A DNA stretch of 63,888 nt, taken from Circinaria calcarea (Eukaryota). Shown here in pieces: positions 54,188 to 63,888 of this stretch (positions are counted from its first letter, which is position 1; every line of letters begins with the position of its first letter). Under the pieces are notes generated by a model that saw only the letters and a list, made by a program, of their open reading frames with translations, was not told the DNA's origin and made no database searches. The position numbers were made by a program, and so were the translations under genes. Where the stretch lies: positions 1 through 63,888 of the forward strand of contig JAVECS010000003.1 of the NCBI GenBank assembly GCA_051942165.1, written 5' to 3'.

Positions 54188-54921
54188 ATGGTCAGCGTTA
54201 TTCAACGTATGAGAAAACTGAGAACTGTACGTTCCACATTTGTCCGCGCTCGAACTGACGAGGATACACTAACCACTGCTCTCACATGTAGAAAGTATGC
54301 CTCCATCGTGTATCAAAAGCCATCGGAGTTCCCACACTGACCCACCGCCCATAGCTACTGGCAATACGACTCGGGCCTGGCGCGGCCGTCCTCCCCAAAG
54401 ATGTCAAAAGAATACATATGGATTTTGCCTCCAAGCTCAACGATGGACACTTTGGCGCGCGCAAATTCTGGCGAAACTACCTTCCCCGTCTCAAATACCA
54501 CAACCCGGCTGTTTCGATGACCATTAATCGTACGACGGACCAAGCAGGTCCTTCAACCATGACAGTCTTCTTCGCCCCTCCCCTCGATTCCACTTCTCCC
54601 ACCACCTCCCCTACACCGTCATCCTCGGCTGGTACACCCACCACTATGTCAGGGCAAGCGCCGTTCGATCGGACAACGTCAATCGACATGAAGTACAAAC
54701 ATGAATCGGAGATTCTAGCAAAGCTGATAGTTCTTACGAAGGCGACAGCCGTGGTAGCGACACCGGAGGAGGAGGCGGAATTGCAAGGGTTGGAGGAGCA
54801 GAGGAAAAGGAGCTTGCAGGATGCGGAGAGGATGGCGGAAGTCAATGAGAGGAGGAGGAGAGAAAAGAGCTTATTGCAGGCAGCAAGAGGGGATGTGGGT
54901 GAGACCCACGCGTTGACTTAA
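54188..54921 (+). CDS. MRP49: Mitochondrial large-subunit ribosomal protein Mrp49 (L51/S25/CI-B8 domain)
   Basis: Exon 1 MVSVIQRMRKLRT|gtacgt; GHFGARKFWRNYLPRLKYHNPAV. Confidence 0.85.
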
Positions 54922-55304
54922 ATAATTTGTGGCTGTTATGTATAACTATTGCGTATAAAGCGCTTGTGGTGGAAGGTACTTTAGGAGAGGGAGTAAACCA
55001 TCTTCCTCTACGAAGAAGTTATCGAAGCTTTACGCATAGTGGCTGTTTTGGAATAGCTCGCACTGCACAGCTGATTTGGGATCGACCGAGGACATGATGA
55101 TCTTCATTACTTTGAGACGTTCCATTGTCTCGTAGATATTGTGTATCATTTGACAGGATTAGGGATGACCAGATGCCGTCCCTTCCAGCAGCTATGTGAA
55201 GTCAAAGTCCGGTCTATATTGATATAGATACCAACCATCTACACCACCGATAGGTTATCGCAACTAGCTGTGCAACCACCTACTGAGCATTTCATGGGCC
55301 GAAC

Positions 55305-55920
55305 TCATTGGTCAAGACGGGTCGGGAAAGTGCCGGTCTCTGCGAGATTTTATCAGCCCATCTTTCCTACACCCCACCCACAACTGCTTTACTGACCCCG
55401 CTGAGTATCCCATCTTTCAACCCAAGCACTAGGGCACAATGACCGATATGCTAAGAAGAACTATGGGAAAGCTATCAGTTAGGGGCAAAATGGTTGGGAG
55501 GCGGGCGCCTCTACTTGACGGCAAGGGGCAAAGTCCTCGCCCTTTGCTAGAATACATTTGTGGTAATCAACATAGTTCTGCCAACAGTGCTTGGTTCTAT
55601 TGATCCATCAGCCCTTATGTATATTATGGATTCGATAACATGGCGGATAGATAAGCCACTCACTGGTTTTGGTTAGGGAAGCGAGCATCGAAGCCTTGAG
55701 TTAGGTCCGGTCGTCAGTGCCCACCCGGTATGAGGATATCAGAGGATATCAGGGAATAGCGGGCTGAATTGGCGGCTTGGGGCAGTTTCCGTCGAAGATG
55801 TGGATATACATACCAGCTGCGACAATGTTGTCAGTAAAGGAAACAACTACTTTACATCTCGGACAATCACTTACCTGTGACGAACTTGAAAGGCTTAGTC
55901 ACACGCTCCTCGTCTGACAT
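55305..55920 (-). CDS. COX12: Cytochrome c oxidase subunit VIb (not in ORF track); 6 exons
   Basis: Exons 55920-55875, 55816-55814, 55694-55664, 55596-55515, 55460-55397 and 55339-55305, all GT-AG, give MSDEERVTKPFKFVTAGFDARFPNQNQTKHCWQNYVDYHKCILAKGEDFAPCRQFFLAYRSLCPSAWVERWDTQRETGTFPTRLDQ*. Confidence 0.96.
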
Positions 55921-56138
55921 GATATTGAAAAGAGTAATTTTTGTTGCTGTGGTTATGATTAAGTATTGCAACTGGTACTACTTAGGAGGAGACTCAATTT
56001 GATGTCGTCAAAAGCAGAGACAGCACTCGGCAATTTGCCGAAATAGGATTAGTACGTTAAGCTTCACGTCAGTGACAAGTCGGTAATATTCCCCCTCGAT
56101 TAAATCCGCTTTTTCCCAATCTTTCCAGGAAAGTCATC
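55921..56138. promoter_or_regulatory. Putative bidirectional promoter with central palindrome
   Basis: 218 bp between divergent ATGs. Contains TCGGCAA-T-TTGCCGA at 56027-56041, CACGTCA at 56065-56071 and CCAAT at 56116-56120. Confidence 0.6.
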
Positions 56139-56663
56139 ATGTATCCAACACGTGTTCTACGAATGCAGCCTACAAGGGCGTTGATGCGGCCAGTGCCGGT
56201 GAGTTAAGGAAAGCTCGGACGGAGAGGAACCCGGCTAATGCCAGCTGTAGAAGGAGGAGCATAGCGGTCTGTCATCCCAAGAAACCAGAGCTTGATATGG
56301 ACAATGGCATTCTCCAGTCATGACAAAACTCTTCACTAACGGGTTTCTTGGGAACAGCACATACTGTCTCTCAGCGTTTGAGGAACCTCAAAAAGATTCC
56401 CCCGGAGTTGATCCCCCTTGGTACGAAAGATCCATAGTGCCCGTATGATCCGCTTGATCTTCTGTACTAACCTTCTCATAGGAATTGTACTTGGGTGAGC
56501 ACTACATCCTCGTGTTCATACGTTTCTCAACCTCTAGGAATACTGATGGGCTCTTCAACGCAGTATTGCCATTGGGGCGGCGTTCTGGTCCATGGGAAAC
56601 AAGCTCTTCACAGACAAAACTCTACGATTGACGAAATCAAATCGGTCGGATAATTTCAAATAG
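56139..56663 (+). CDS. 83-aa single-TM mitochondrial protein, MLRQ/NDUFA4(COXFA4)-like (not in ORF track); 5 exons
   Basis: Exons 56139-56198, 56251-56266, 56358-56420, 56482-56494 and 56564-56663 (252 nt, all GT-AG) give MYPTRVLRMQPTRALMRPVPKEEHSAHTVSQRLRNLKKIPPELIPLGIVLGIAIGAAFWSMGNKLFTDKTLRLTKSNRSDNFK*. The PELIPL-TM-KLxxDxxLRL pattern resembles the MLRQ family. Confidence 0.85.
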
Positions 56664-56885
56664 CGGGTATTATGGAGCGATACTGTTCTAGTGCGAGAGG
56701 GATCTATTTGAACCGACTCGGGGGCCGGACAGATAAAGATACTGCAATTTGTGAAGTGTGACCAGGCCAAAAATTTCGGGGCCTTAGTTTATGTTGTACA
56801 TATGTTAGGGGTGTATTCTAGCTGATTGGAAGACATCATTTGTCATTAGTTCGCTGCGGCAAAGCACGTTGAATTTCTTAGATTC

Positions 56886-57427
56886 TTATGACGACGCTGG
56901 TTGTGGACCTGCTACATCGAGTCCCTCGAGTCCTTGCATGGGGCCATCGGGACGGACGTCTGATCCATTCCTCGCCTTTTCCGCAGCTAGTCGGTCTTCA
57001 TCGCTGACTGCGTGTTTGGCCAGCCAACCCTCCTGGAAAATAAAATGTCAGCTCAGAATACCTTGCCGCCGCCTTGGCAGATGAGGTGGAATGCTAGACG
57101 ACATACTTGCTCCCAAATTGCCGTTTTGCTTCCCAGGCCTTCGTTGCTCTCCTTTTGGGGCTTTGCGGCTGCCACTTTGATTACTCGGCCAAATAACTCG
57201 CTCTGATGCATGTTGTCTATCGCCTCCTTGGCGTCGCCCGGAACCTCAAATTCAACGTAGCCAAATCCCCGATGCGGATCCGGCGAAGAAGGTACTTCTG
57301 GCTTTGGTAAGGAAACTTCTACAATCTCTCCAAAGGGTAGGAATGCTTCGGCCAGTATTCTCTCGTTGACCGCGTTATCGAGACCGCCCACGTAGACGGT
57401 TGCCTTAAGTCGGGCGGTGTCTGACAT
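56886..57427 (-). CDS. RRM protein homologous to the N-terminus of cyclophilin E (PPIE/Cyp33), no PPIase domain
   Basis: TVYVGGL (RNP2), HRGFGYVEF (RNP1) and AIDNMHQSELFGRVIKV; intron about 57107-57034; exon 2 EGWLAKH..GPQPASS*. Confidence 0.88.
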
Positions 57428-57851
57428 GGTAAACCGTCAAGATGGTGACTGATGCTATAGCCTGTTAGCATAGACATGTACACAGCTCTAAATAGATGGC
57501 ATCATAACTCACCGAAGTAGTCTGATGTCACGTGGAGGCTTGGATATTTCTTGAGTGACCGGGTTAAATTCGGCAAAGTAGCCTGGCACTACCATAGTGG
57601 CCCTCCAAGCATTGATTGGGCGGAAGGACACTTCTTAAAATGCCCCGATTATCCAGACATGCAAGATATAATATATTGACCGTCAAAAGTAGACGCTTTC
57701 ATGAATTAAATTGATCGTTGAAGATGAGAAACTTGATTGTATGAAAAAGGGCGCAGAGTATCGGTGAGGAAGATCATTTCGGAGCTGCTTACATCCCTAA
57801 TACGCCTGGCAAAATCACGAATCTGCTTGTTGTTGCGCGATTGTATCTGCG

Positions 57852-63429: not shown

Positions 63430-63888
63430 GCTTTCCCGAGTCTCAGGGGGGGTCGCCAGGCTTTCGGCGGGGGTCGTCCGGTATCTAAATTTCGCCCTGG
63501 TATATAATAAAAACTAGGCGTATTCGCCCTGAATCAGGCGCAATTCGCCCTGAGCCAGGTATAATTCGCTCTAAGTATCAGAACCGGCTCCAATTAGTAC
63601 ATTAATATAAATTCCAAAAGTAATACTAAATATGAAAGGCTATTCGGCTGGTTCGGCGTATTCTAAAAGGCATAATTCGGCGCATAGTTCGGCGTATTCC
63701 GAAGGCATGGAAGGCACGAATATACCAATATTTAGTAGAGTCCGAGGCACGAGGCGCGAGTATTCGGCAGGCGTAGCCTTTATAGATAAAAGGTATAGGC
63801 CCGGAATAGTGAGTTACGCTTAATTATAAATTCTGGTTTCGGGTAATACTCGGGTCGGTAAATTACCGGCCAACCCCCCCCCCCGGAG
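63430..63888. repeat. Degenerate repeat-rich DNA, probably the edge of a RIP-mutated element
   Basis: Four TTCGCCCTG-like units at about 63490-63575, several TTCGGC units at 63641-63770, and a TpA-rich composition. Confidence 0.55.

Follow-up and report, generated by a model that had tools for sequence, protein, structure and literature searches.

In the window, which is the whole stretch of 63,888 nucleotides (nt) analysed from contig JAVECS010000003.1 of Circinaria calcarea, the cytochrome c oxidase gene COX12 was found to stand head to head with a gene for an 83-amino-acid (aa) protein of the B12D/MLRQ family (NDUFA4-like), and the same divergent pair was found to be kept in relatives of three Pezizomycotina classes. 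This conserved head-to-head COX12-B12D pairing is the new part of the result, and no published description of the gene pair was found in literature searches. The 83-aa protein itself represents no new family, since its sequence places it in Pfam B12D/MLRQ, within a branch from Pezizomycotina for which annotations exist already. Taken as a whole, the locus is likely to be unexceptional: a run of neighbouring nuclear genes for mitochondrial proteins, kept together since ancient times and including the divergent COX12/B12D pair, in a fungus of Lecanoromycete type. The gene models and the divergent arrangement are real, and the coordinates that the original prediction had given for the gene models, the 218-bp spacer, the palindrome, the CCAAT box and CACGTCA were all found to be correct when the sequence was read and checked by script.

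The region from 54188 to 56663 contained three intron-rich genes (MRP49-like, COX12 and B12D). The block as a whole (54188-57436) was found to contain the MRP49-like gene and COX12 in convergent orientation, followed by COX12 and B12D in divergent orientation and by B12D and an RRM-domain gene in convergent orientation. The pair and its spacer have the following positions.

55305..55920, minus strand: COX12 (COX6B family), 86 aa, six exons (55920-55875, 55816-55814, 55694-55664, 55596-55515, 55460-55397 and 55339-55305), with the start codon at 55920 and the stop at 55305.
55921..56138, no strand: spacer shared between the two ATG codons, 218 bp, by direct reading.
56139..56663, plus strand: B12D/MLRQ-family (NDUFA4-like) gene, 83 aa, five exons (56139-56198; 56251-56266, 16 nt; 56358-56420; 56482-56494, 13 nt; 56564-56663).

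When spliced by these coordinates, the B12D gene was found to contain a coding sequence of 252 nt with GT..AG at every intron. The protein was aligned without gaps over 83 of 83 residues with a protein of Xylographa parallela (P0020; 88% identity) and over 83 residues, again without gaps, with a protein of Usnea florida (P0016; 79.5% identity), and these alignments validate the five-exon model and place the window near the Lecanoromycetes. The Xylographa protein is itself annotated at 83 aa and was found to score 23.6 bits against Pfam PF06522 (B12D/MLRQ), for which the gathering cut-off is 21.5 bits. With the exon-5 peptide (P0001), three representatives were retrieved among 1.84 billion proteins; one of them, the 96-aa P0006, scored 26.5 bits for Pfam B12D against the same cut-off, and a search with P0006 was found to give 325 homologues at E≤0.01, many of which were already named 'MLRQ subunit'. 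PF06522 was matched by all 35 of the 35 aligned family members (E≤0.01), and the spliced protein of the window scored 156.7 bits against a hidden Markov model (HMM) of the 35 members, with all 22 of the 22 invariant columns kept. The nearest Atlas clusters were three B12D clusters from Ascomycota, with 220, 72 and 55 members. It counts against the assignment that the single B12D exons of the window had no Pfam match alone, Pfam having been run on the homologues only; the exon-5 peptide alone likewise had no match in Pfam or PDB. The MLRQ/B12D similarity that had been proposed for the 83-aa protein was thus borne out through its homologues, which pass PF06522, and through the family HMM. The genes had also been described as hidden, which holds for tracks based on open reading frames (ORFs) and not otherwise, the family being widely annotated as 'MLRQ subunit'; proteins of this name in Aspergillus, Penicillium and lichen fungi are of the same family and size as the window protein.

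The 83-aa protein was found to contain a basic N-terminal stretch (four K/R and no D/E in residues 1-20) followed by the conserved motif KKIPPELIPL, a single hydrophobic segment at residues 43-61 (Kyte-Doolittle maximum 2.06) and, last, a short basic tail. The AlphaFold2 (AF2) model of the B12D family contained helices at 29-37 and 43-73, with a mean predicted local distance difference test (pLDDT) of 69 and values of 91-96 at residues 41-60. By hydropathy and by the AF2 model, the protein has the form of a B12D member, being small and having a single transmembrane helix right after a conserved motif. The basic N-terminus resembles an import signal and suggests mitochondrial import.

COX12 was found to be a clear member of the Cox12/COX6B1 proteins. 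Pfam COX6B was matched by exon 3 alone (E 2.5e-9), yeast Cox12 chains in PDB were matched at 2e-13, and the Cx9C and Cx10C cysteine pairs were readable in the translation. The window gene is unlike Cox12/COX6B1 in that it is divided into six exons, one of which is only 3 nt long.

The conservation of the pair was followed in metagenome contigs, which were scanned with the B12D family alignment and gave 80 loci. COX12 was sought by tblastn with the window proteins, and a locus was taken as informative when it contained at least 1200 bp of upstream sequence. COX12 was found divergently upstream of B12D in 44 of the 46 informative loci, plus 7 shorter loci, and L036 was found to contain COX12 exon 1 only. 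Counted as non-redundant groups, 32 contained the pair (window included) and 2 did not, so that the linkage, for which the original prediction had proposed a synteny check, is strongly conserved. Both start codons were placed in 50 loci and in the window, which together form 32 non-redundant groups; in L048 the pair was present and the COX12 start was not placeable. The distance from ATG to ATG was 192-807 bp with a median of 241 (32 groups), typically 200-290 bp in the relatives and 218 bp in the window. Divergent starts less than 1 kb apart, in an arrangement kept across relatives of several classes, are features that the locus has in common with bidirectional gene pairs.

The named relatives nearest to the pair-bearing groups were Xylographa, Usnea, Acarospora and Stereocaulon in the Lecanoromycetes, followed by Hyaloscypha, Oidiodendron and Cudoniella in the Leotiomycetes and by Vermiconidia, Fulvia and Cercospora in the Dothideomycetes, the class placement of the groups being rough, as it was made by the nearest named B12D proteins and the protein is short. 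Two observations weigh against taking the linkage as a sign of function. The two groups without the pair (L070/L071 and L078) contained no COX12 in the upstream 4 kb and kept the RRM gene; the B12D proteins of these exceptions were nearest to Onygenales-like proteins, and another gene was found to sit upstream. The other observation concerns the RRM gene, which has the following position.

56886..57436, minus strand: RRM-domain gene, 3' part, convergent on B12D, from ORFs (Pfam RRM_1, E 9.2e-15).

Among the 48 loci whose sequence continued for 1500 bp or more beyond B12D, 41 had this functionally unrelated gene there in convergent orientation, both exceptions included. The RRM neighbour is kept almost as often as COX12, and adjacency alone is therefore no proof of functional coupling and may reflect tight packing. 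As side observations, the last coding ORF of the RRM gene ends about 220 bp from the B12D stop in the window, and the long ORFs upstream in L070 (1554-2794, plus strand) were found to resemble an HMG-CoA-lyase-type enzyme when the translation was judged by eye.

Hints of the transcripts were provided by spliced contigs. In L001, L002, L005, L007 and L063 the B12D reading frame was found to be intron-less with 11-101 nt present 5' of the ATG, and these five contigs together with L065 were found to continue into the RRM gene, so that contigs of 1.1 kb resembling complementary DNA (cDNA) merge the messenger RNAs (mRNAs) of B12D and RRM. The 3' ends of the two genes therefore probably overlap. L003 (1-1054) was found to lack every intron of COX12 and of B12D and yet to cover the whole 216-bp spacer; a donor was present directly after COX12 exon 1 in all 30 other metagenome groups. 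L003 is most simply an mRNA-derived contig in which the COX12 and B12D mRNAs were merged, and the transcripts of the two genes would accordingly abut or overlap head to head in that relative. On this point the locus is unlike known bidirectional gene pairs, since a spliced contig of one relative covers the whole spacer and the 5' ends may overlap instead of flanking an untranscribed promoter.

According to the preferred reading, COX12 and B12D would be transcribed divergently from the compact spacer, with the two 5' ends close or overlapping. Such 5' ends would couple the expression of COX12 and B12D and would make a breakpoint between the two genes harmful, and coupled expression together with a harmful breakpoint would explain the survival of the pair in relatives of three classes. 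Both the co-regulation of the pair and the position of the start sites are suggested here from the sequence. The element that bears on the start site is the following.

56059..56065, plus strand: AAGCTTC, a copy of RAGCTYC and a possible marker of the B12D transcription-start region, from group enrichment.

In 14 of the 32 groups RAGCTYC was present on the strand of B12D at a distance of 55-120 nt before the ATG, where shuffles gave 0.71 groups and never more than 5 (500 shuffles). Among the spliced contigs, L063 was found to begin at RAGCTYC and L065 to begin 3 nt before it. RAGCTYC is the clearest and best-conserved element of the spacer, with copies 60-115 nt before the B12D ATG, and probably lies at the B12D transcription start. 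It counts against the element that it emerged post hoc, from k-mers found to be enriched, and that the 32 groups are phylogenetically related, and RAGCTYC is therefore to be taken as a lead only.

With about an even chance, the 83-aa protein may be a small inner-membrane protein acting at or near cytochrome c oxidase, by analogy with mammalian NDUFA4. The tight COX12-B12D pairing in relatives of three Pezizomycotina classes is an independent argument, drawn from genomic context, for the protein working together with cytochrome oxidase. Mammalian NDUFA4/COXFA4 and the fungal protein have in common Pfam B12D (PF06522), a small single-pass membrane form and a conserved motif just before the helix. 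The fungal protein is unlike NDUFA4 in that it covers profile positions 1-42 of 54 only and has a short C-terminal tail, in that it contains a long basic N-terminal extension, and in that the fungal profile does not reach the solved NDUFA4 chains at E≤10. The Schizosaccharomyces pombe protein SPCC417.16 (PMC9935853) and Podospora anserina B2B1C3 (PMC10886707), at about 80-83 aa, are of the same family as far as the naming in the accessible parts of these papers goes.

Several results weigh against a role of the protein at complex IV. The fungal family profile, searched against PDB with a limit of E≤10, reached none of the NDUFA4 chains, the set searched including the human complex IV entry 5z62, and a single-sequence search of PDB with P0006 (phmmer) likewise gave no NDUFA4 chain at E≤10, with rows at chance level only. 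When the AF2 family model was compared with PDB by Foldseek, one row with E=8 was obtained, an uninformative result of the kind expected of a single helix. SPCC417.16 is annotated as the NDUFA4 orthologue of S. pombe, and yet no density in the cryo-electron microscopy of complex IV accounts for it, as stated in the accessible text of PMC9935853. The S. pombe III-IV supercomplex paper gives the same 11 complex IV subunits, and a term search of it found no mention of NDUFA4 (PMC10655221). The complex IV of Neurospora crassa is given as 10 subunits, with a nanodisc belt that is said to exclude more, in the available text of PMC6608615.

Other published observations bear on the same question. The B12D protein is no subunit of complex I in fungi, MLRQ having been absent from the complex I of Pichia pastoris, Yarrowia lipolytica and N. 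crassa according to the accessible part of PMC2953923. For mammalian NDUFA4, loose binding as a subunit of complex IV is reported in work cited in the available text of PMC9935853, and the same text describes one subpopulation without Cox12 and Cox13 in S. pombe complex IV preparations, so that such subunits can go missing during purification. In a CLPP-null strain of P. anserina, B2B1C3 is described as accumulating alongside components of complex IV (PMC10886707, available text).

The order of the genes could also have been kept passively, as micro-synteny in which tight packing and overlapping transcripts rarely tolerate rearrangement and in which nothing in particular would link the B12D protein to Cox12 or complex IV. 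This is held to be possible but somewhat unlikely. The retention of the unrelated RRM gene, the cDNA-like contigs that merge B12D with RRM and the L003 contig that merges COX12 with B12D are all consistent with it, as is the finding that the B12D protein is present in no fungal complex IV structure described in the accessible texts of PMC9935853 and PMC6608615. Passive retention is opposed by the retention of COX12, which at 44/46 is at least equal to that of RRM, and by the two pair-breaking loci, both of which kept the RRM side. Both products are, moreover, small respiratory-chain proteins, and passive retention is opposed as well by the loose binding reported for mammalian NDUFA4 and by the S. 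pombe subpopulation without Cox12/Cox13, both from the available text of PMC9935853. The divergent and possibly coupled pair is preferred.

The spacer also contained the palindrome that the original prediction had read as a symmetric Zn2Cys6 site, through which one regulator would co-activate COX12 and B12D.

56027..56041, no strand: perfect 7+1+7 palindrome TCGGCAATTTGCCGA (TCGGCAA, a central T and TTGCCGA), containing CGG-N7-CCG, by direct reading.

The palindrome is perfect, its centre (56034) was found to be 4.5 bp off the spacer midpoint, paired CGG triplets are the usual half-sites of Zn2Cys6 proteins, and a central palindrome is also present in the two nearest relatives (L024 and L069). 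The palindromes of these relatives, AGCCACATTGTGGCT and AGCCACTTTGTGGCT, were however found to be without the CGG/CCG pair. The window palindrome was found in 0 of the 51 other loci with 2 mismatches allowed, and CGG-N7-CCG was found in 3 other groups only, the sequence being different and unrelated in each. The palindrome is also unremarkable statistically on its own. Perfect inverted repeats with arms of at least 7 and a spacer of at most 5 were found 32 times in the window, which is about 0.11 per 218 bp and more frequent than in 20 Markov-1 resamples (mean 19, range 14-25). CGG-N7-CCG was found 18 times in the window against 12.0 ± 3.2 expected, with 18 reached by 6 of 100 shuffles, and palindromes were not enriched in the 32 spacers, arms of at least 7 being present in 5 against 2.9 expected, a number that 15% of shuffles reach. 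The exact 15-mer TCGGCAATTTGCCGA was unique in the window, a uniqueness that says little. Since the palindrome is missing from the 51 loci, CGG-N7-CCG is unconserved and such repeats are statistically unremarkable, the reading as a Zn2Cys6 site is unsupported and is considered highly improbable; the CGG triplets are present and are not conserved in the orthologous spacers, and the central palindrome is a feature of the lineage and not a regulator site that has been conserved. The palindrome may instead have been kept by its position and symmetry and not by its sequence, as a hairpin in overlapping 5' leaders or as a symmetric core-promoter element of this lecanoromycete lineage, which is regarded as very unlikely. 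The best or near-best inverted repeat was found at relative spacer position 0.50-0.54 in the window, L024 and L069, and the spacers L069:3550-3761 and L024:3510-3754 were found to contain a common central block GACTCGGAAGCGAGCCAC(T/A)TTGTGGCT holding their own palindrome, a block that amounts to a clear phylogenetic footprint shared by these two contigs of lichen-like type (local score 53, reached by 0 of 300 shuffles). The centre of the palindrome lies upstream of RAGCTYC by 25 nt in the window and by 20 nt in L069, and a lenient gapped alignment gave a weak collinearity of the window and L069 spacers as far as the palindrome (z 3.8; 3 of 400 shuffles). In that same alignment, however, the palindromes do not coincide but are shifted by some 9 nt, and a strict local alignment of the window spacer with L069 and L024 stayed at shuffle level. 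The independent events are only two, no rule of a central palindrome was found in the other 29 groups, and the predicted hairpin (6 bp with a 3-nt loop) is weak, its energy being -8.6 kcal/mol if folded as RNA (z -1.64) and -5.9 if folded as DNA (z -2.34). As a side observation, a second palindromic CGG-N7-CCG, CGGTAAATTACCG, was found at 63856-63868 near the end of the window.

A bolder form of the preferred reading, which is considered unlikely, would make the B12D protein either the missing NDUFA4 equivalent of fungal cytochrome c oxidase, as a loosely bound subunit, or a partner in the late assembly of this enzyme. An ancient transcription unit, with the two genes head to head and their 5' ends interleaved, would tie its dosage to that of Cox12. 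The palindrome, conserved in position and variable in sequence, would in this form be a symmetric core element for both directions in the lineage of the window.

Two further elements of the spacer were examined across the orthologous groups.

56065..56071, plus strand: CACGTCA, by script check.
56116..56120, plus strand: CCAAT box, 19 nt before the start codon of B12D, by script check.

CACGTCA, which had been put forward as a spacer element, was found in 1 of the 32 orthologous spacers (that of the window only) against 1.3 expected and is not supported as such; CACGTCA, TGACGT and CACGTG were all at or below expectation in the 32 spacers. With both strands counted, 18 of the 32 spacers contained CCAAT, where shuffles gave 10.9 ± 2.6 and no more than 20. 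This is a modest excess of CCAAT boxes, with positions that vary and groups that are related. The 8-mer GAGTGGAG / CTCCACTC (either strand) was found in 9 of the 32 groups against 0.5 expected, and seven groups (L016, L019, L051, L056, L061, L067 and L074) have CTCCACTC at roughly 20-30 nt before the start codon of B12D. GGTCTGAG (8/32) and GTGAGGT (10/32) were over-represented too.

The neighbour of COX12 on the other side and the two smallest exons of the block have the following positions.

54188..54921, plus strand: MRP49-like gene (mitoribosomal L51_S25_CI-B8 domain), exons 54188-54226, 54292-54294 and 54355-54921, spliced by coordinates.
54292..54294, plus strand: micro-exon AAA of the MRP49-like gene, 3 nt, with the motif YAG/NNN/GTRNG.
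55814..55816, minus strand: micro-exon CTG of COX12, 3 nt, which supplies Ala in VTAGFDARF, as read in the intron-less L003.

The MRP49-like gene was found to contain Pfam L51_S25_CI-B8 (E 5.3e-9), and its protein matched the N. crassa mitoribosome chain 6ywe_j in PDB over residues 1-182 (E 2.7e-47). The neighbour of COX12 is thus a mitoribosomal protein, as had been claimed, which we take to be MRP49/mL61 (yeast Mrp49). The gene was found to adjoin COX12 in lichen-like loci only.

The two adjacent genes, COX12 and MRP49-like, were each found to contain one 3-nt micro-exon with flanking acceptor and donor motifs that are conserved in relatives. The motif YAG/CNG/GTRNG was found at the same place of COX12 in 16 of 27 groups, the CTG being fused to the next exon in L016, and the motif YAG/NNN/GTRNG of the MRP49-like gene was present in 9 of the 9 lichen-like groups. 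The locus illustrates how micro-exons of 3 to 16 nt conceal small mitochondrial proteins from ORF-based tracks.

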